Below, one piece after another: positions 58,341 through 64,000 of a stretch of 64,000 nucleotides of DNA. The DNA is taken from sequence record OL960581; one strand, given 5' to 3'. Numbering within the stretch: position 1 is the first letter of the stretch; every line of letters starts with the position of its first letter. The position numbers were made by a program, and so were the translations under genes. Origin of the DNA: Escherichia phage vB_EcoM_SA20RB. The notes below the pieces were generated by a model. The model did not search any database. It was not told the DNA's origin and worked only from the letters and a program-made list of their open reading frames with translations.

Positions 58341-58369
58341 AAATAAAAAGGGAGAGCCTCGGCTCTCCC
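58341..58369 (-). terminator. terminator hairpin GGGAGAGC-CTCG-GCTCTCCC
   Basis: 8-bp stem followed on the minus strand by TTTTTATTTC. Confidence 0.7.
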
Positions 58370-58374
58370 TAAAA

Positions 58375-58524
58375 TTACTGCATGACTGTGATAACTGTCA
58401 TGATAACACGTTGAATTCCGAATGCAAGAAGACCTCCTGCTACGGCTGGAACAACACCTAACCCCGCCAGTAAAATGCCACCAGATACTAATGCAGCGCT
58501 TGTAATACCAATGAATGGACTCAT
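58375..58524 (-). CDS. small hydrophobic membrane protein
   Basis: 49-aa ORF read by hand (MSPFIGITSAALVSGGILLAGLGVVPAVAGGLLAFGIQRVIMTVITVMQ); SD GAGGAAA; ATG overlaps the gene 52 stop. Confidence 0.55.
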   Translation of the reverse strand: MSPFIGITSAALVSGGILLAGLGVVPAVAGGLLAFGIQRVIMTVITVMQ

Positions 58525-59849
58525 TTGATTTCCTCTAAATCTTTGGTGTATTCAGTAACTACATCAGTAGTTTTCCAATATTCGTTTTCTTCTTTTTTGG
58601 CTTTAGCTTCTTCAGCAAGTTTCTTCGCTTCATCGGAAGTCATATGAAAAATATTCATTCCGACTAGTTTATCAACATAAGAAGAATACATCTCAATTTT
58701 AGAAAGTTCTTCGGTCAGTTCTTTACGAGTTTTACCCTGCACAACAATTTCACCTGAAATTACTTTCTTAATGAAATGTGCCTTGGCAAAGGCTAAACGA
58801 AATGCTGATTCAGTTTCTTTGATTTTGTTATCAATTCGTTTTTGGACATAAGTTTTACGAACTTCAACGAAGTCTTTAATTAAATCAACTACGTTATCGT
58901 AAACTTGTAACTTTCCTTTCTCGTTGATGATTGTAATATTTTGGGAACGACGCTCAATCAACCCGAAGTCTTTCATGATTTTTGCATGGCGTTCTTCTTC
59001 GTTATCGCTCAAAGAATATTCTTTGCGGAATTTAACTTTAAAGCCAAAACCATGCTCACCGCAAGCATCATCCCACGTAATGAAGCCTTTATCTTCAAGC
59101 GGGTCTAAGATTTTACTCACATAAGTTTCACGATCATACTTATACGGAATCTCAGTGATATGCATTTGAGTTCGTGAAGTAAACTTGTACGTTCCACGAA
59201 TTTCATATTGACCGTCAATTTCAACGACTTCACCGCGAAATTCTGGGAATTCTACCTTCGGTTTAGTTACTTTCTTTCCTTGAAGAGCTTGCAATACAGC
59301 TTTCTTGACAGAAGAAACACTATGAGGAAGAATGTAAGTTGCATAACCAGTTGCAATACCGGAAACACCATTAAGAAGAACAGTAGGAATAATAGGCAAA
59401 TAGAAAGCAGGCGGAATGTGTTCTTTATCTTGATGTACCGGAGCATATTCAGTATCTTTATATACGTTATAGAAATTTTTACTTACACGAGCAAAAATAT
59501 AACGACTTGCTGCTGCTTTTTGGACGGTACGAGAACCAAAGTTTCCTTGACCATCTAACAGAGGGAAGTTATTATTCCAAGTATTAGCCATCAAAGCCCC
59601 CGCATCTTGTGCAGAGTTTTCACCATGATGATATCCAAGGTCAGCTACACCACCTGCAATAGAAGCAAGTTTGTGAAACTTATCTTTATTTCCTCGCGCC
59701 AAATCAAGAGCTCGAGCAATAACAAATCGTTGAACTGGCTTAAATCCATCAATCATATTTGGAATAGCACGATTTTCAACCGTGTACATAGCATAAGCCA
59801 ATGCTTCATTATCAATGATACTTTTTAAATCGCGATTATTCAGTTGCAT
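58521..59849 (-). CDS. 52: DNA topoisomerase II medium subunit gp52
   Basis: 442 aa as in T4; GyrA-like N-terminal region. Confidence 0.95.
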   Translation of the reverse strand: MQLNNRDLKSIIDNEALAYAMYTVENRAIPNMIDGFKPVQRFVIARALDLARGNKDKFHKLASIAGGVADLGYHHGENSAQDAGALMANTWNNNFPLLDGQGNFGSRTVQKAAASRYIFARVSKNFYNVYKDTEYAPVHQDKEHIPPAFYLPIIPTVLLNGVSGIATGYATYILPHSVSSVKKAVLQALQGKKVTKPKVEFPEFRGEVVEIDGQYEIRGTYKFTSRTQMHITEIPYKYDRETYVSKILDPLEDKGFITWDDACGEHGFGFKVKFRKEYSLSDNEEERHAKIMKDFGLIERRSQNITIINEKGKLQVYDNVVDLIKDFVEVRKTYVQKRIDNKIKETESAFRLAFAKAHFIKKVISGEIVVQGKTRKELTEELSKIEMYSSYVDKLVGMNIFHMTSDEAKKLAEEAKAKKEENEYWKTTDVVTEYTKDLEEIK

Positions 59850-59986
59850 AAATTTACCATACTAGTGAATGTAGTGCCATAATAACATCAGAAATGAAAA
59901 GCACGACTTGAATTAATCCGAACATTACTCCATAATATAGTGCTACTAATAAAGTAGCAAGGGCTAATGAATAGCCCAAGATTTTC

Positions 59987-60145
59987 TTAATCATTAGTAG
60001 ATAACAACACAAATGTTAAATATGCACACATACCCTGGGCTAAAGCTTGCGAAAACACGCTGCTGGCATCAATACAGATAGTTAAAACACATGCTACTAT
60101 CCAACAAATAAATGAAATAACTCCTAATAATTTTGCGATATTCAT
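59987..60145 (-). CDS. small membrane protein, possibly Ac (acriflavine-sensitivity protein)
   Basis: 51-aa hydrophobic ORF read by hand (MNIAKLLGVISFICWIVACVLTICIDASSVFSQALAQGMCAYLTFVLLSTND); strong SD GAGGAAAA; sits between stp and 52; the ac identity is from recalled T4 gene order only. Confidence 0.5.
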   Translation of the reverse strand: MNIAKLLGVISFICWIVACVLTICIDASSVFSQALAQGMCAYLTFVLLSTND

Positions 60146-60155
60146 ATTTTCCTCA

Positions 60156-60233
60156 CTAGCGTCCGAAGATGCCTTTAGTTTTAAGATTGTTACGATAGAA
60201 CTGCATTACATGTTCGTTATGAAAATTACTCAT
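60156..60233 (-). CDS. stp: Stp peptide (suppressor of pseT; modulator of the host PrrC anticodon nuclease)
   Basis: 25-aa [28 protein letters not shown], matching T4 Stp as recalled (26 aa); ATG overlaps the ndd stop. Confidence 0.8.
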
Positions 60234-60688
60234 TAGTATGCCTGCAAAACAAATTTAAAGTTATCAGCCAACATACGGTTCATTTCTTCAAGTGTTTGAT
60301 ACTCAGAATGATGATTACGAGTAAACGCCAAAGCTAACTGACCTTTTCCAAATCCCGTCGTCAGAGGTTTCATCTTAGAAGCAGGTAGATAAAATACCGT
60401 GTATGGAACATTGTTATTTGCAATAGTACGCGCGAGCTGAGACCGACGTTGACGAATATGACTTAGAACTGCACTAAATCCTTGCTTAGAACGCTGATTA
60501 CCTACATAAAATCGCGCAGATACGCACGGACTATCAAATGGACCACCAAATTTGCTCACTAAAAAGTAAAATCCAGGGTTAGATAAAATGTCTTTATGCG
60601 GAGTTCCAAAAACCCATTCACCGCCCTTGATTGTACCAATAACAGTTGCGCCTGCATTATTCAGATCAGTAACAGTCATGTATTTCAT
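60233..60688 (-). CDS. ndd: nucleoid disruption protein Ndd
   Basis: 151 aa from MKYMTVTDL, preceded by SD GAGGAAA; the ORF track extends 16 codons upstream. Confidence 0.85.
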
Positions 60689-60748
60689 ATTGATTTCCTC
60701 TAAATTATTTTCTACTCCAAGGCCGCATGAATACACACGGCCAATAAA

Positions 60749-60964
60749 TTAATCGTCGCAGTCGACGCTCAATTCCCAGAACTCTTCTACGGTATAAGTT
60801 TCAGTATCATTTTCAATACAGAAACGTTCATTACTGTTATTTGCTAAAGTAGCGTTAACTGTCATTTTCTCGCTAGTGCTCTTAAGAGGAGAAATACGAA
60901 TTAACTGATCACCATTATCTAAACAGAAAATTTCACCAACTTTTACATCTTTAAAAATTTTCAT
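60749..60964 (-). CDS. hypothetical protein
   Basis: 71-aa ORF. Confidence 0.5.
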   Translation of the reverse strand: MKIFKDVKVGEIFCLDNGDQLIRISPLKSTSEKMTVNATLANNSNERFCIENDTETYTVEEFWELSVDCDD

Positions 60965-61079
60965 AATTCACCTCAAGGAGTATAAAATCCAAATGCAGTT
61001 GTTGACCATCCCATCCAATATGGGATATTTGCGCCAATGTAAAATACAAGAATATAAAACCAAATGCTTAGTAAATTCA

Positions 61080-61298
61080 TTATTTTACACCATTCCAAAT
61101 TGTTTCAACCACAGATTTCAAACCATTTTGGTGAATATCCATTCCGACAACTGCCATCAAATAAATTCCAACTACAACTGAACCCAAGGCGAAAATCAGC
61201 ATGAAAATGAATAAAGCCGGAAAAATATTATCGAAAAACCATTCAATAAATGTAAAAGCACTGCGTTTACGCTTCATATTTTCCTCACATAAATCCAA
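61080..61298 (-). CDS. small membrane protein (start may be the internal MKRKR Met)
   Basis: 72-aa ORF with one strongly hydrophobic segment. Confidence 0.5.
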   Translation of the reverse strand: MDLCEENMKRKRSAFTFIEWFFDNIFPALFIFMLIFALGSVVVGIYLMAVVGMDIHQNGLKSVVETIWNGVK

Positions 61299-61398
61299 AG
61301 TAAGCGTTTAATATATCAATCATTAAAACGATTGGGAATATACTCAAAACTACTAGTATTATAACTACATTCCATATAGCTTTAACAATCTTTTTCAT
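61285..61398 (-). CDS. small membrane protein
   Basis: 37-aa form MKKIVKAIWNVVIILVVLSIFPIVLMIDILNAYFGFM with SD GGAGG; the 82-aa track ORF would run through the early promoter upstream. Confidence 0.45.
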   Translation of the reverse strand: MKKIVKAIWNVVIILVVLSIFPIVLMIDILNAYFGFM

Positions 61399-61426
61399 TT
61401 TCTGTTCCTCCGTAGTTGATAGGATA

Positions 61427-61456
61427 ATAATACCACAGAGGAACAGTCTTGTAAAC
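61427..61456 (-). promoter_or_regulatory. T4-type early promoter
   Basis: Minus strand reads GTTTACA, 17 nt, TATTAT. Confidence 0.55.
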
Positions 61457-61641
61457 AACTTTTTTAAAAATATTCGTAATAAATGTGAATACCAACTACT
61501 ACCGCTGAAACTTGTGCAACCCACCACGCACAAGCAATAAGTACAGAATTCAAAATTTTCATAATAACCTCATCACAAAAGTAAATGTTAAACAAATTAA
61601 TGGAATACTAATTAACCAAACGAAACACCACCATAATGAAC

Positions 61642-61914
61642 TCATAGTTCAATCTCAGCGATTTTCATTTCATTACTATTAATAGCCGCTTTAAGACTAT
61701 TTGAAAGAATTACATTCCAGTGGTCATTCATATGACCATTAACTAAGCGTGTAATTTCTTCGGGAGTTGAAAAATAAGGCGTATCAGACTCCCAATGCGA
61801 TAGTCCCAAGCGAGTATAAATCATACCTTCATCATCGCTAGAATATTCAACTGACACAAACTCATCAGTTATTTTATGTTTAGCGTAATAAAATTTAAAT
61901 TTCATTTTACTCAA
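61642..61914 (-). CDS. hypothetical protein
   Basis: 90-aa ORF. Confidence 0.55.
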   Translation of the reverse strand: MSKMKFKFYYAKHKITDEFVSVEYSSDDEGMIYTRLGLSHWESDTPYFSTPEEITRLVNGHMNDHWNVILSNSLKAAINSNEMKIAEIEL

Positions 61915-62117
61915 TAATCCGCTAAAAGATCGACGATTGCATCACGAAGACACTTATTCGCAATACGTTTAAGAGCAATTTCAGTTTCTGGAGCATTTTG
62001 AATAATCATTGAATTCAATTCAGCCTCAGCAAACTGAAGTTCTTTAACTAATTCAGCTTTATATTTTCCTTGCCCTTTCTTAGCTTTTGCTCGTTTTAAT
62101 TCAGCTGTAGTAAACAT
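61911..62117 (-). CDS. hypothetical protein
   Basis: 68-aa form from MFTTAELKR with SD GGAGAA; the longer track ORF would overlap the early promoter and denB. Confidence 0.5.
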   Translation of the reverse strand: MFTTAELKRAKAKKGQGKYKAELVKELQFAEAELNSMIIQNAPETEIALKRIANKCLRDAIVDLLADY

Positions 62118-62197: not shown

Positions 62198-62755
62198 TTA
62201 AATGGAAAGATACCATCCGTTGTAGTTGCTTTTTCTTACAACCTTACGAAGGTCTTCTCTGTCACCGATGAACTTCGGAGTGTACTGGATGACACCTGGA
62301 TGAATTTCTTTAGTGTTGAATATAATTATACAGTCAGCGACCTGATGATTCAGAATGGGCCCTAGATTTATTCCAGAACCATATGGATACTCTCCGCTGC
62401 ATCCGGTTGTTACCGAAATCCAACGTGAGTCAGTTTGATGTGTCTTAACTTCTACACGAAGCCCACAGTATTTTGGATGCGCCAATACATCCCATGCATA
62501 TGTGTACGGATCATCGACATCTTCTTGACCTTTGTTAACATACCCGCTCAGCCAATCTGCTACAAAAAACTCTGCGTACACAGCGATACGGCATCTTTCG
62601 ATAACTTCTGCCTTATCCTGATTCGGATTTTGTTTTAAAGAGTATCTTGCTGTATCAGCAATTTTGACCTTCATTTCACTAGTCAAGTCACTGTTCGATA
62701 GAGTAAATGTCGGAATCTGAAATAGTCTCTGTAACCCAGGATTCGTTTTCTGCAT
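62198..62755 (-). CDS. denB: endonuclease IV (position of T4 denB)
   Basis: 185 aa, same length as T4 DenB; adjacent to rIIB as in T4. Confidence 0.65.
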   Translation of the reverse strand: MQKTNPGLQRLFQIPTFTLSNSDLTSEMKVKIADTARYSLKQNPNQDKAEVIERCRIAVYAEFFVADWLSGYVNKGQEDVDDPYTYAWDVLAHPKYCGLRVEVKTHQTDSRWISVTTGCSGEYPYGSGINLGPILNHQVADCIIIFNTKEIHPGVIQYTPKFIGDREDLRKVVRKSNYNGWYLSI

Positions 62756-63061: not shown

Positions 63062-64000
63062 TTATTTAAATTGTTCAGTAACGTCTTCAACTACTTCGTA
63101 TTGGCAGGTACGCATTTTAGCATCGTTGTAATCAATCGGAATTGATACTACATCGCGTGGATGTACTTTAACTTTTACAACTCGGCTGGTTGAACCACCG
63201 AAGTGACGAATATAAGATTTAGAACACACATGCAGACCACGAGAACAAGTTTGTGTATCATCGTCATTCACACGAGTACGCGGCATTTTAACTACTTTAC
63301 CCGGACTGTTATCAAAGGTGTTTGAGTGACAGTCAAAGTAATTGCTGCGAACTACTTTCCAAGCATAGAAGTAACCATCTTCTGTAATTTCAATATCGTT
63401 TGCTACCAAGAAATCAAAGAGTCGAGATACCGCTTTTTGGCTTGGGTTTTCCAGCAGATTTTCCAAGAACGGAAAATAAAATTCAAAGTTTTCGCCTTTT
63501 TCCATCGAGTCAAGAATACGATCAACCAAACCAGACCGCAATTCGATATTTTGATAGAACAAGCTTCCACCTTCAATTCGAACATCACCGGAAATATATT
63601 TTTCAACAGCACGGCGAACATTAATTTTTTGTGCAGCTTCTTCCAGCTTATCCGCTACAAGCAGATTAAGAATTTCCTGGAAGTTTAAATGAGTATTAGG
63701 AGTTGCGTTATAAGTTACGCCGTCAACAGTAATTGAAATGAATTTTTTAGATGCATTCCAAATAATGTCAGATTTAGCAACTGGAGCAATAGCTACATCG
63801 CTCTTAACTTCAACTGTAATGTCACCGCTAATGGCAACTTTGGAGCGTTCAGCTTCTTCAGCATTTTTCAAAACACGACGGATTGTGTCCACCGATACAT
63901 CTTTCCAATAAGCCAATTCCTGTTGGGTATAATTACCGCTTGAATACAGTTTAACAATTTCAGCTTGTTCGTTTTTGGTCAGGCATTTAATATTGTACAT
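63062..64000 (-). CDS. rIIB: rIIB protein
   Basis: 312 aa as in T4; sequence recognised; the start codon is the last 3 bases of the window. Confidence 0.9.
   Translation of the reverse strand: MYNIKCLTKNEQAEIVKLYSSGNYTQQELAYWKDVSVDTIRRVLKNAEEAERSKVAISGDITVEVKSDVAIAPVAKSDIIWNASKKFISITVDGVTYNATPNTHLNFQEILNLLVADKLEEAAQKINVRRAVEKYISGDVRIEGGSLFYQNIELRSGLVDRILDSMEKGENFEFYFPFLENLLENPSQKAVSRLFDFLVANDIEITEDGYFYAWKVVRSNYFDCHSNTFDNSPGKVVKMPRTRVNDDDTQTCSRGLHVCSKSYIRHFGGSTSRVVKVKVHPRDVVSIPIDYNDAKMRTCQYEVVEDVTEQFK

Follow-up and report, generated by a model that had tools for sequence, protein, structure and literature searches.

AcrZ, MgrB and MgtS are small inner-membrane regulators of bacteria that bind a larger membrane protein. 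In bacteriophage T4 the small membrane proteins Imm, Sp, RI, RIII and T fill roles in superinfection exclusion and lysis, and the T4 annotation has for decades also carried the short ORFs treated here, which lie between denB and motA. Only ac among them has a phenotype, a classical one: T4 lacking ac is acriflavine-resistant, and expression of Ac makes Escherichia coli sensitive to acriflavine and ampicillin (preprint 10.1101/2025.06.30.662393). An interaction of Ac with AcrAB-TolC has been proposed in that preprint, and the proposal is repeated in PMC13250531. The remaining T4 counterparts are without an assigned function, in keeping with the remark in an initial annotation of the present DNA that peptides of this kind are rarely characterised.

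In T4, the transcripts of all these genes belong to the early class (PMC9697503, Table S2). The T4 time-course proteome included Ndd and Ndd.1 but none of the peptides (PMC9697503, Table S2); this is a weak negative result, because the products are short and hydrophobic, have few tryptic sites and are thus expected to be missed. A search of the literature collection used here found no ribosome-profiling study of T4. All these genes were scored as 'Not Fit' in T4 by CRISPRi-ART, in which gene 52 was 'Fit' (PMC11879866, supplement), and by HIDEN-SEQ all are non-essential in T4, with 86-100% of TA sites hit (bioRxiv 10.1101/2025.11.20.689424). In one condition comparison of the HIDEN-SEQ work, 52.1, motA.1 and ndd.2 to ndd.6, including ndd.2a, exhibited no conditional depletion (q = 1.0; 10.1101/2025.11.20.689424). 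On laboratory E. coli the genes are dispensable, as neither knock-down nor transposon insertion leads to a phenotype. By term counts, a preprint on the Mosigvirus 'Emp' peptide makes no mention of ndd, 52.1, denB or transmembrane, and its bearing on the present locus is one of analogy only.

Results

The window analysed, 64,000 nt of Escherichia phage vB_EcoM_SA20RB (OL960581), is that of a Tequatrovirus (T4-type phage), about 97% identical to the nearest T4-like phages. The region is 97.5% identical to that of the closest Tequatrovirus, and 80% or more of its length is represented in 484 phage records. The initial annotation had described a chain of tiny hydrophobic ORFs of 28, 32, 37 and about 64 codons on the minus strand, and three more of 49, 46 and 51 codons around gene 52. 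The first three were present as claimed and correspond to ndd.6 (61559..61645, minus strand; one hydrophobic helix, 27/28 residues identical to T4 Ndd.6), ndd.5 (61464..61562, minus strand; one hydrophobic helix, 32/32 residues identical to T4 Ndd.5) and ndd.4 (61285..61398, minus strand; a basic N-terminus and one transmembrane helix, 33/37 residues identical to T4 Ndd.4). T4 annotates the start of ndd.4 five codons upstream of the start used here. The fourth ORF (61080..61277, minus strand) exists, with a length of 65 aa instead of about 64, and represents a full-length ndd.2a (DUF7248) whose C-terminal 40 residues are all identical to T4 Ndd.2a (40/40). The 49-aa ORF (58375..58524, minus strand), Gly/Ala-rich and hydrophobic, and the 46-aa ORF (59854..59994, minus strand; DUF7396) were likewise found as described and are motA.1 (48/49 residues identical to T4 MotA.1) and 52.1 (45/46 identical to T4 gp52.1), respectively. 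The remaining ORF (59987..60145, minus strand) is the acridine sensitivity gene ac, a two-segment hydrophobic product that matches T4 Ac at 51/51 residues and carries one inserted residue; it is 52 aa long, not 51, because of one extra Thr codon in this allele. A fifth member of the chain, ndd.2 (60973..61080, minus strand; 35 aa, 31/35 residues identical to T4 Ndd.2), had not been listed in the initial annotation. Altogether, the eight peptides show 89-100% protein identity to the T4 products.

The gene order, all on the early-gene strand, is denB, orf68, orf87, ndd.6, ndd.5, ndd.4, ndd.2a, ndd.2, ndd.1, ndd, stp, ac, 52.1, 52, motA.1 and motA. This ORF map agrees with the annotation of T4 (NC_000866) and of ime09, and the placement originally given, in the ndd-denB interval and flanking gene 52, was confirmed. 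Every ORF is an already annotated T4 gene, and none is novel.

The 65-aa ORF corresponds to what the T4 reference lists as two genes, 'ndd.3' and 'ndd.2a'. The reference sequence lacks one G after codon 2 of the 65-aa frame, and the split results from the omission of this single base; in resequenced strains of T4 the gene product is a 65-aa protein identical to the one found here. The 65-aa ORF is therefore the true gene, and the ndd.3 and ndd.2a entries of the T4 reference should be merged. In its product a basic N-terminus precedes a hydrophobic core, and the C-terminal motif GLK....(W/M)NG is invariant. A word-indexed homology search with this protein retrieved only close T4-like relatives, all DUF7248, and an exhaustive phmmer search against 1.84 billion representatives gave eight matches: three T4-like proteins, a 25-residue fragment without assignment, and four partial matches, to the hydrophobic core or the C-terminal motif, inside proteins of 419-6939 aa. 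The four matches in large proteins were regarded as compositional, and these searches gave no link beyond T4-like phages.

Kyte-Doolittle analysis bore out the strongly hydrophobic character ascribed to the ORFs, with best 19-residue windows of 2.17-3.06, and of 1.64 for the 35-aa ndd.2; one or two hydrophobic helices predominate in each product. The 64 kb contain 270 ATG-initiated ORFs of 25-70 aa, 29 of them hydrophobic. When only free-standing ORFs were counted (no overlap with an ORF of at least 90 aa), 10 hydrophobic ones were left in the 64 kb, seven of which fell within the 3.3 kb between 58375 and 61645, on the coding strand.

Among 18 Tequatrovirus genomes, third codon positions accounted for 83 of the 135 variable sites (binomial p = 2e-11), and they dominated the variation in all but one of the eight genes. 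The variable sites at codon positions 1/2/3 numbered 3/0/5 in ndd.6, 1/2/9 in ndd.5, 3/2/20 in ndd.2a, 4/3/13 in ndd.2 and 3/1/19 in motA.1, and for each gene 15-18 genomes were compared, 14-18 of which had the frame intact. Most members are thus under purifying selection of the ordinary kind within the genus. For ndd.4, 26 copies within the genus revealed seven non-synonymous and two synonymous variable sites, that is, no synonymous excess, and polymorphic third positions seemed too few, 2/36 against 51/156 (p = 7e-4). RNA structure was rejected as the cause of this apparent synonymous shortage, the fold z-score of -1.14 not being significant, and the ORF map of the window contained no alternative ORF spanning ndd.4. 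The almost exclusive amino acid variation of this gene might be a sign of co-evolution with a target in the host. Elsewhere in the region, a candidate overlapping gene inside gene 52 (59267-59446) was dismissed, its deficit of synonymous variation being only weak (p = 0.03).

All eight peptides matched PHROG profiles, with complete coverage of both peptide and profile and with E-values from 3e-17 to 7e-31, namely phrog_8851 (ndd.6, 3e-17), phrog_5011 (ndd.5, 4e-26), phrog_3098 (ndd.4, 8e-21), phrog_2401 (the 65-aa ndd.2a, 3e-30), phrog_4135 (ndd.2, 1e-22), phrog_2501 (ac, 4e-25), phrog_3487 (motA.1, 7e-31) and PHROG 3595 (52.1). In Pfam, the 65-aa ORF matched PF23906 (DUF7248) with 71.9 bits over residues 6-63, and 52.1 matched PF24129 (DUF7396) with 81.9 bits over residues 1-46, the gathering threshold being 27 in both cases. 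A search of NCBIfam gave no significant match for the peptides.

Homologs with 27-61% identity that retain family-specific motifs are present in other T4-like genera, where Ndd itself is only 45-66% identical, and such motifs are kept across genera by Ndd.6, Ndd.4, Ndd.2a, Ndd.2, 52.1 and MotA.1. The Ndd.6 homologs (39-59% identity) share WC..W...IP.IC..F, and those of Ndd.2 (32-56%) share F..G.N.PYW.G. Ndd.4 is the most widely retained member in distant T4-like phages, in which it shows 33-61% identity and the conserved motif KAIWN...FP...D; in one metagenome scan with an ndd.4 pattern degenerate at third positions only six true copies were found. Homologs of 52.1 (27-93% identity) with an invariant C-terminal Trp occur in nearly all T4-like loci examined, and MotA.1 homologs (38-45% identity) in one more distant genus; in other genera, the position of motA.1 is taken by unrelated hydrophobic ORFs of 22-59 aa. 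No homolog of ndd.5 outside Tequatrovirus was found among the T4-like loci sampled. The genes ndd.4 and ndd.2a are neighbours in the window, as they are in two distant genera, and phage Sf25 has them fused. An obligate pair of the two products was nevertheless rejected, since different genera carry Ndd.4 without Ndd.2a or Ndd.2a without Ndd.4, each being found alone in several of them; this speaks for members that are independent of each other.

With regard to expression, the linkage by ATGA or TAATG overlaps described initially was seen at some junctions: ATGA overlaps join orf87 to ndd.6, ndd.6 to ndd.5 and gene 52 to motA.1, and in a TAATG overlap the stop of the 65-aa ndd.2a meets the start of ndd.2. 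The overlap of ac and 52.1 comprises 8 nt. Such linkage is absent between ndd.5 and ndd.4, which are separated by a 65 nt spacer containing a promoter-like site, and between ndd.4 and ndd.2a, which are 7 nt apart and each preceded by a Shine-Dalgarno sequence of their own. Translational coupling, which had been claimed for the whole chain, is thus suggested by the geometry of some junctions and does not hold for ndd.4, upstream of which lie both the promoter-like site and a Shine-Dalgarno sequence stronger than any other in the region (GGAGGA; anti-SD pairing energy -9.5 kcal/mol, within the top 0.1% of ATGs). The Shine-Dalgarno sequence of ndd.5 is GAGG. No such sequence precedes ndd.6 (-2.7 kcal/mol), 52.1 (+0.9 kcal/mol) or stp, and all three belong to the six genes whose start overlaps an upstream stop. 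Every start has either a good Shine-Dalgarno sequence or a stop/start overlap.

The promoter-like site in the ndd.5-ndd.4 spacer (61427..61455, minus strand) reads TTTACA, 17 nt, TG-n-TATTAT; in a consensus scan it matched 10 of 12 consensus positions and additionally the extended -10 TG, and its designation as early-type is by consensus match only. The scan detected 23 such sites as compared with 17.4 expected from shuffled sequences, which is not a clear enrichment. Early promoters of T4 are of the UP/-35/TGn/-10 type (PMC2988021). Just after motA.1, a hairpin resembling an intrinsic terminator (58349..58370, minus strand) comprises nine pairs, six of them G-C, followed by a T-run; phage fPS-65 has a terminator annotated at the corresponding place, and the hairpin probably ends the transcription unit. 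A 37-codon ORF in an alternative frame (61382-61495), annotated in some records, was rejected as spurious, as it runs across the promoter and homopolymer indels disrupt its frame.

The product of 59987-60145 differs from T4 Ac by one Thr inserted near the C-terminus. An ac allele with this additional Thr is that of phage PP01, and its phenotype is unchanged (preprint 10.1101/2025.06.30.662393). By sequence, the window gene encodes Ac itself, and it would confer the acridine phenotype described for the T4 and PP01 alleles. Of the roles put forward in the initial annotation, namely superinfection exclusion, lysis timing and inhibition of host membrane complexes, only the last has support, as a proposal made for Ac only (10.1101/2025.06.30.662393).

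Discussion

Each of the eight ORFs is a conserved protein-coding gene of 28-65 codons. Identity to T4, synteny, family membership, codon-position pattern and diverged homologs all agree that these are genuine genes for small membrane peptides, as had been surmised initially. They are the annotated early accessory genes of a Tequatrovirus, and we consider it probable that their products are independent peptides of the inner membrane, made early, which modulate envelope proteins of the host. According to the sequence signals and the T4 data, transcription would begin immediately after infection from two early-type promoters, of which the first lies downstream of denB and the second in the ndd.5-ndd.4 spacer, and the transcripts would run as far as the terminator after motA.1. 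Translation of ndd.4, ndd.5, ndd.2a, ac and motA.1 would start at their own Shine-Dalgarno sequences, and that of ndd.6 and 52.1 by re-initiation at the overlapping stop and start codons. From their composition and the positive-inside rule, the products are predicted to be inner-membrane proteins of the infected cell whose basic N-terminus faces the cytoplasm. By analogy with the Ac proposal only, each peptide alone might then bind a larger host envelope protein and alter its activity, in the way that Ac is proposed to block the AcrAB-TolC efflux pump so that acridines accumulate in infected cells. The benefit may be visible only on particular hosts or under particular conditions, and this would reconcile the dispensability of the genes in the laboratory with their retention across genera.

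That some of these ORFs are not translated at all, but are T4 annotation carried over, open by chance in AT-rich DNA or present as promoter, spacer or mRNA-stability sequence, we regard as very improbable. Hydrophobic small ORFs do arise commonly by chance at 36% G+C (29 in the window), the neighbouring alternative-frame ORF 61382-61495 is clearly spurious, ndd.4 has no synonymous excess and proteomics detected no peptide, but all this is outweighed by the predominance of third-position variation in every gene but one, the integrity of the frames throughout the genus, the motifs preserved at 30-60% identity by diverged homologs of Ndd.6, Ndd.4, Ndd.2a, Ndd.2, 52.1 and MotA.1 in other genera, the good Shine-Dalgarno sequence or stop/start overlap at each start, and the genetic phenotype of ac. 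Least credible of all is that the products are the outer-membrane, periplasmic or enzymatic proteins named in GenBank, for which there is hardly any room left. Many records do carry the names 'outer membrane protein', 'periplasmic protein' or 'naphthalene 1,2-dioxygenase', and L-I-A-C in Ndd.5 resembles a lipobox. However, neither a beta-barrel nor a dioxygenase can be built from peptides of 28-65 aa that consist mostly of a single hydrophobic helix, Pfam and NCBIfam give the labels no support, and the 'periplasmic' call for Ndd.2a rests on the truncated 40-aa product of the T4 reference, which is an artefact. The Cys of Ndd.5 is at residue 11, a shorter distance from the N-terminus than the PROSITE lipoprotein rule gives for canonical signal peptides; Ndd.6 and Ndd.2 are without a lipobox, and the lengths of Ndd.2, Ndd.5 and Ndd.6 are 28-35 aa. 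These database labels are unfounded.

Among readings that accept the genes as coding for membrane peptides, a role in superinfection exclusion, by blocking the DNA entry of a secondary phage, or in lysis timing, by tuning the holin/antiholin clock, has its precedent in the small T4 membrane proteins Imm, Sp, RI, RIII and T, and early expression would suit exclusion. Against this, the peptides matched no lysis or exclusion family in PHROG or Pfam, where they fall into the categories 'other' or 'unknown function', neither the lysis genes nor imm and sp are adjacent, and a late lysis role conflicts with early transcription; no r-type or exclusion mutants are known to map to this interval. With regard to holins and antiholins, no family match was found (PHROG, Pfam), the genes are located between denB and motA behind early-type promoters, and their T4 transcripts are early. 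Matches to PHROG and Pfam were limited to the peptides' own families, with none relating them to Imm or Sp. Such a role is therefore quite improbable. Rather less so, yet still unlikely in our opinion, are counter-defence or host-range factors. These would neutralize abortive-infection or exclusion systems that act at the membrane and belong to particular hosts or prophages, much as the neighbouring genes rIIA and rIIB counter RexAB, and would not be directed at housekeeping machines of the envelope. The peptides share an early non-essential block with the host-conflict genes rIIB, denB, ndd and stp, the last of which encodes the activator of the PrrC anticodon nuclease. Their gene content is mixed and matched between genera as for arms-race genes, laboratory strains show no phenotype, and ndd.4 varies within the genus almost solely by amino acid changes. 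Opposed to this are the ordinary purifying selection on most members within the genus and the absence of conditional depletion (q = 1.0) in the one HIDEN-SEQ comparison considered. A counter-defence function differs from the modulation of host envelope proteins solely by the kind of target, and the two overlap to a large extent.

Extending the modulation of host envelope proteins, the denB-motA interval might be a mix-and-match arsenal in which the inner-membrane peptides are independent and each specifically inhibits a target of its own, be it an envelope machine of the host or a defence effector anchored in the membrane, an idea that we put forward tentatively and with more doubt than conviction. 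Ac, with its proposed block of efflux, would be the first example of such an arsenal. If each peptide does target a host envelope complex, the set would offer small, ready-to-use tools for probing or inhibiting the membrane machines of bacteria. The discovery value as such is small, the genes being already annotated and assigned to PHROG and Pfam DUF families. Still, these are eight conserved early membrane peptides of the best-studied phage with a function assigned only for ac, which standard proteomics misses and for which two genome-wide fitness screens were blank on laboratory hosts.

Compared with T4, the order, strand, spacing and overlaps of ndd.2 to ndd.6, 52.1 and motA.1 are the same in the window. 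In contrast to the T4 reference, which divides the 65-aa ORF into ndd.3 and ndd.2a, the ORF is intact here, and the non-hydrophobic orf87 and orf68 (87 and 68 aa), located between ndd.6 and denB in the window as well as in ime09 and RB14, are absent from T4. T4 Ac has 51 aa, whereas the window allele has the extra Thr that is phenotypically neutral in PP01; the other peptides have no detectable sequence similarity to Ac. T4 Imm and Sp, and likewise RI, RIII and T, resemble the present peptides as small phage-encoded envelope proteins, but they are larger (83-218 aa), are encoded elsewhere in the genome, have phenotypes that map elsewhere and share no family match. Unlike AcrZ, MgrB and MgtS, which are bacterial and bear no sequence relationship to them, the window peptides are phage-derived; they have in common with these regulators a length below about 65 aa and a single transmembrane helix, and may also act by binding. 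Their resemblance to the class of small membrane-protein modulators, as we infer it, is one of size and hydrophobic-helix content, together with the analogy to the mode of action proposed for Ac.

Identity and arrangement of the tiny ORFs

The end of the window coincides with the start codon of rIIB (312-aa ORF, 63062–64000, minus strand), which is the customary end point of T4-type genome records. On the same strand rIIB is followed by denB.1, denB (62198–62755), a 68-aa ORF (61911–62117), an 87-aa ORF (61642–61905), the chain of tiny ORFs, ndd.1, ndd (60233–60688), stp (60156–60233), ac, 52.1, gene 52 (58521–59849), motA.1 and motA. A 4 kb segment spanning the tiny ORFs was 97.5% identical to Escherichia phage vB_EcoM_SP1 and matched 759 phage records, 484 of them with at least 80% coverage; nearly all belonged to Tequatrovirus.

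The tiny hydrophobic ORFs reported in the initial annotation, between ndd and denB (61080–61645) and around gene 52, were all present. They correspond, on the minus strand, to ndd.6 (61559–61645, 28 aa), ndd.5 (61464–61562, 32 aa), ndd.4 (61285–61398, 37 aa), full-length ndd.2a (61080–61277, 65 aa), ac (59987–60145, 52 aa, an allele with an extra Thr), 52.1 (59854–59994, 46 aa) and motA.1 (58375–58524, 49 aa); ndd.2 (60973–61080, 35 aa), missing from the earlier list, is the eighth. A hydrophobic helix dominates each peptide, the best 19-residue Kyte-Doolittle window being 2.17–3.06, and 1.64 in Ndd.2. All eight matched PHROG families over their full length (E 3e-17 to 7e-31), the 65-aa protein matched Pfam DUF7248 (71.9 bits, cut-off 27) and 52.1 matched DUF7396 (81.9 bits, cut-off 27); an NCBIfam search of the peptides gave nothing significant. 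The earlier interpretation was broadly right, except that all eight genes are already annotated in T4 and hence are not new, being rediscovered T4 genes without an assigned function.

The claim that the chain is linked throughout by ATGA or TAATG overlaps applied to only some of the junctions. ATGA joins the 87-aa ORF to ndd.6 and ndd.6 to ndd.5, and TAATG joins the 65-aa ORF to ndd.2, whereas ndd.5 and ndd.4 are 65 nt apart and ndd.4 and the 65-aa ORF 7 nt apart. Elsewhere, gene 52 and motA.1 overlap by ATGA, ndd and stp by TAATG, and 52.1 starts 8 nt within ac.

Between ndd.6 and denB, the non-hydrophobic 87-aa (phrog_2390) and 68-aa (phrog_4535) ORFs have no counterpart in T4 but occur in ime09 and RB14. 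Variable sites of the 87-aa ORF among Tequatrovirus genomes were spread almost equally over codon positions 1/2/3 (66/61/72), and this pattern suggests very divergent alleles across the genus. The window Stp has 25 aa, lacking the final Gln of the 26-aa T4 protein and carrying V22I; at the stp position in ime09 and IsaacDaniel, a 57-aa ORF (174 nt) is annotated instead.

The tiny ORFs are conserved protein-coding genes

As the genome has a G+C content of 36%, hydrophobicity alone is no evidence of a real gene: 29 of the 270 ATG-initiated ORFs of 25–70 aa in the window passed the hydropathy threshold, mostly as alternative frames of real genes. Of the hydrophobic small ORFs in the whole window, only ten did not overlap any ORF of 90 aa or longer, and the stretch 58375–61645 held seven of the ten on its coding strand. 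In a comparison of 18 Tequatrovirus genomes, among them T4, ime09, RB14, RB51 and ten further isolates or viral contigs, the variable sites of the eight genes were distributed 30/22/83 over codon positions 1/2/3 (p = 2e-11), and those of the four ORFs of 61080–61645 11/7/34 (p = 2e-6). Each frame was intact in 14–18 of 15–18 comparable genomes.

T4-like phages at a greater distance, with an Ndd of just 45–66% identity, were searched by tblastn and ORF maps, and homologs of most of the eight were found: Ndd.6 (39–59% identity), Ndd.4 (33–61%), the 65-aa protein (28–51%), Ndd.2 (32–56%), 52.1 (27–93%), MotA.1 (38–45%) and Ac (∼34–56%). Family motifs were kept, namely WC..W...IP.IC..F in Ndd.6, a basic N-terminus with KAIWN and then an invariant Asp ending the helix in Ndd.4, an invariant C-terminal GLK....(W/M)NG in the 65-aa protein, F..G.N.PYW.G in Ndd.2 and a C-terminal Trp in 52.1. 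Taken together, the placement, third-position variation, intact frames and family motifs indicate, at the level of sequence comparison, that these are protein-coding genes under selection.

ndd.4 differed from its neighbours. Over its length, 490 of 494 records had a DNA identity of 95% or more to the window, and among 26 Tequatrovirus copies nine nucleotide haplotypes occurred, each encoding a different protein, with variable sites 4/3/2 at codon positions 1/2/3. Third positions varied at 2/36 compared with 51/156 in four neighbouring tiny genes (Fisher p = 7e-4), and the amino-acid changes were conservative swaps (I/V/T/A) within the helix. No alternative ORF was found that might account for the synonymous deficit, and the RNA fold was not significant (z = −1.14). 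Two histories would fit this small sample: selection acting on the protein, or near-neutral change after a recent sweep.

Inside gene 52, a very hydrophobic 59-codon ORF lies in frame +1 (59267–59446, minus strand). This frame is open (59–128 codons) in several distant T4-like phages, and gene 52 third-position variability was lower over it (10/61 versus 115/381), a weak signal (p = 0.03) that may simply be a consequence of the conserved gp52 sequence.

Correction of ndd.3/ndd.2a in the T4 reference

In the T4 reference (NC_000866, 166432–166628) the 65-aa ORF is divided into ‘ndd.3’ (26 aa) and ‘ndd.2a’ (40 aa). Alignment revealed that one G is missing directly after codon 2 (ATGAA-CGT versus ATGAAGCGT). 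This state was found in three records only (X75802, AF158101 and NC_000866), which descend from the same original sequence, whereas the extra base is present in nine independently sequenced T4 stocks, RB55 and RB59; two T4 stocks, when translated, gave a 65-aa protein identical to that of the window. As the resequenced stocks carry the full gene, the DUF7248 profile runs across the whole 65 aa and the HIDEN-SEQ T4 annotation coordinates also include the extra base, the sequences identify ‘ndd.3’ as an artefact, and so is the label ‘periplasmic protein’, which came from the truncated product. In phage T2 (PV648363) the 65-aa gene carries a nonsense codon, and in phage Sf25 the Ndd.4 N-terminus is fused in frame to Ndd.2a.

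Putative expression signals

Early-type promoter-like sites were detected on the minus strand in the ndd.5–ndd.4 spacer (61455–61427; TTTACA, 17 nt, TG-n-TATTAT) and downstream of denB (62180–62152), and a third upstream of motA; such consensus matches numbered 23 against 17.4 in shuffles, without clear enrichment. T4 early promoters are of the −35/TGn/−10 kind (PMC2988021). A strong terminator-like hairpin follows motA.1 (58370–58349, minus strand), and the annotation of phage fPS-65 includes equivalent promoters and terminators. An alternative-frame 37-codon ORF with a TTG start (61382–61495, minus strand), annotated as a gene in ime09, HP3 and IsaacDaniel, crosses the ndd.5–ndd.4 spacer, where it overlies both the ribosome-binding site of ndd.4 and the promoter-like site. 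Homopolymer indels disrupt this frame in other genomes, and the call is very probably spurious.

Pairing with the 16S 3' end was strongest at ndd.4 (−9.5 kcal/mol, top 0.1% of 1394 same-strand ATGs) and good at ndd.5, the 65-aa ORF, ac and motA.1 (−6.0 to −6.4 kcal/mol). By the same energies, Shine-Dalgarno pairing was absent at ndd.6, 52.1 and stp. Since all three of these starts overlap the upstream stop, their geometry fits termination–reinitiation coupling, with independent initiation elsewhere; ndd.5, ndd.2 and motA.1 show a stop/start overlap too, yet keep some pairing. The ribosome-binding sites of ndd.4 (61413–61398, minus strand; GGAGGA) and motA (58264–58248, minus strand; GGAGA) both contain GGAG, while those of the other tiny genes have GAGG. 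The RegB endoribonuclease of T4 cleaves early mRNAs at GGAG, which might lead to early shut-off of ndd.4.

Experimental record and possible function

When the transcriptome and proteome of T4 were followed over time (PMC9697503, Table S2), motA.1, 52.1, ac, stp, ndd.2, ndd.2a, ndd.3, ndd.4, ndd.5 and ndd.6 gave early transcripts; the proteins of these ten genes were undetected (‘NA’), whereas Ndd and Ndd.1 were detected. No T4 ribosome-profiling study was found in the literature searched. In CRISPRi-ART all tiny genes were ‘Not Fit’ and gene 52 ‘Fit’ (PMC11879866, supplement). Transposon sequencing classed them all as non-essential, with 86–100% of TA sites hit, and one condition comparison showed no depletion (bioRxiv 10.1101/2025.11.20.689424). 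Among the tiny genes only ac has a phenotype: its expression in E. coli confers sensitivity to acriflavine and ampicillin, T4 without ac is acriflavine-resistant, and the extra-Thr allele is also described there (preprint 10.1101/2025.06.30.662393). Ac was proposed to be located in the membrane and to block AcrAB-TolC (same preprint; repeated in PMC13250531).

That the ORFs are not translated is contradicted by their conservation pattern. Records of relatives (e.g. ime09, IsaacDaniel and Sf23) label the 28–65-aa peptides ‘naphthalene 1,2-dioxygenase’, ‘outer membrane protein’ or ‘periplasmic protein’, and motA.1 bears a propagated ‘transcriptional regulator’ label; no profile support was found for such labels on the tiny peptides, and to take them as correct is untenable, since peptides of 28–65 aa are too small for such products. 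Superinfection exclusion or lysis timing, raised in the initial annotation, has the wrong expression timing and genome location, and a family match is absent. With rIIB, stp and ndd nearby, the peptides could plausibly serve in counter-defence, directed at membrane-acting systems of the host, a reading that differs from the model favoured here only in the kind of target.

The tiny genes are conserved coding sequences that lie in an early-gene context, and their products are dominated by hydrophobic helix. In the model that we favour, they would be transcribed as immediate-early polycistronic messages, and the peptides, translated from their own Shine-Dalgarno sequences or via coupling, would insert in the inner membrane with their basic N-termini on the cytoplasmic side. 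Which members are present differs from genus to genus, so that they look like independent units and not like subunits of one complex: Mosigvirus-like loci have Ndd.4 without the 65-aa protein, and other loci have the 65-aa protein without Ndd.4. At matching positions, e.g. at the end of gene 52, other genera have hydrophobic ORFs that are unrelated. By analogy with the proposal for Ac, each peptide may bind and alter a larger host envelope protein.
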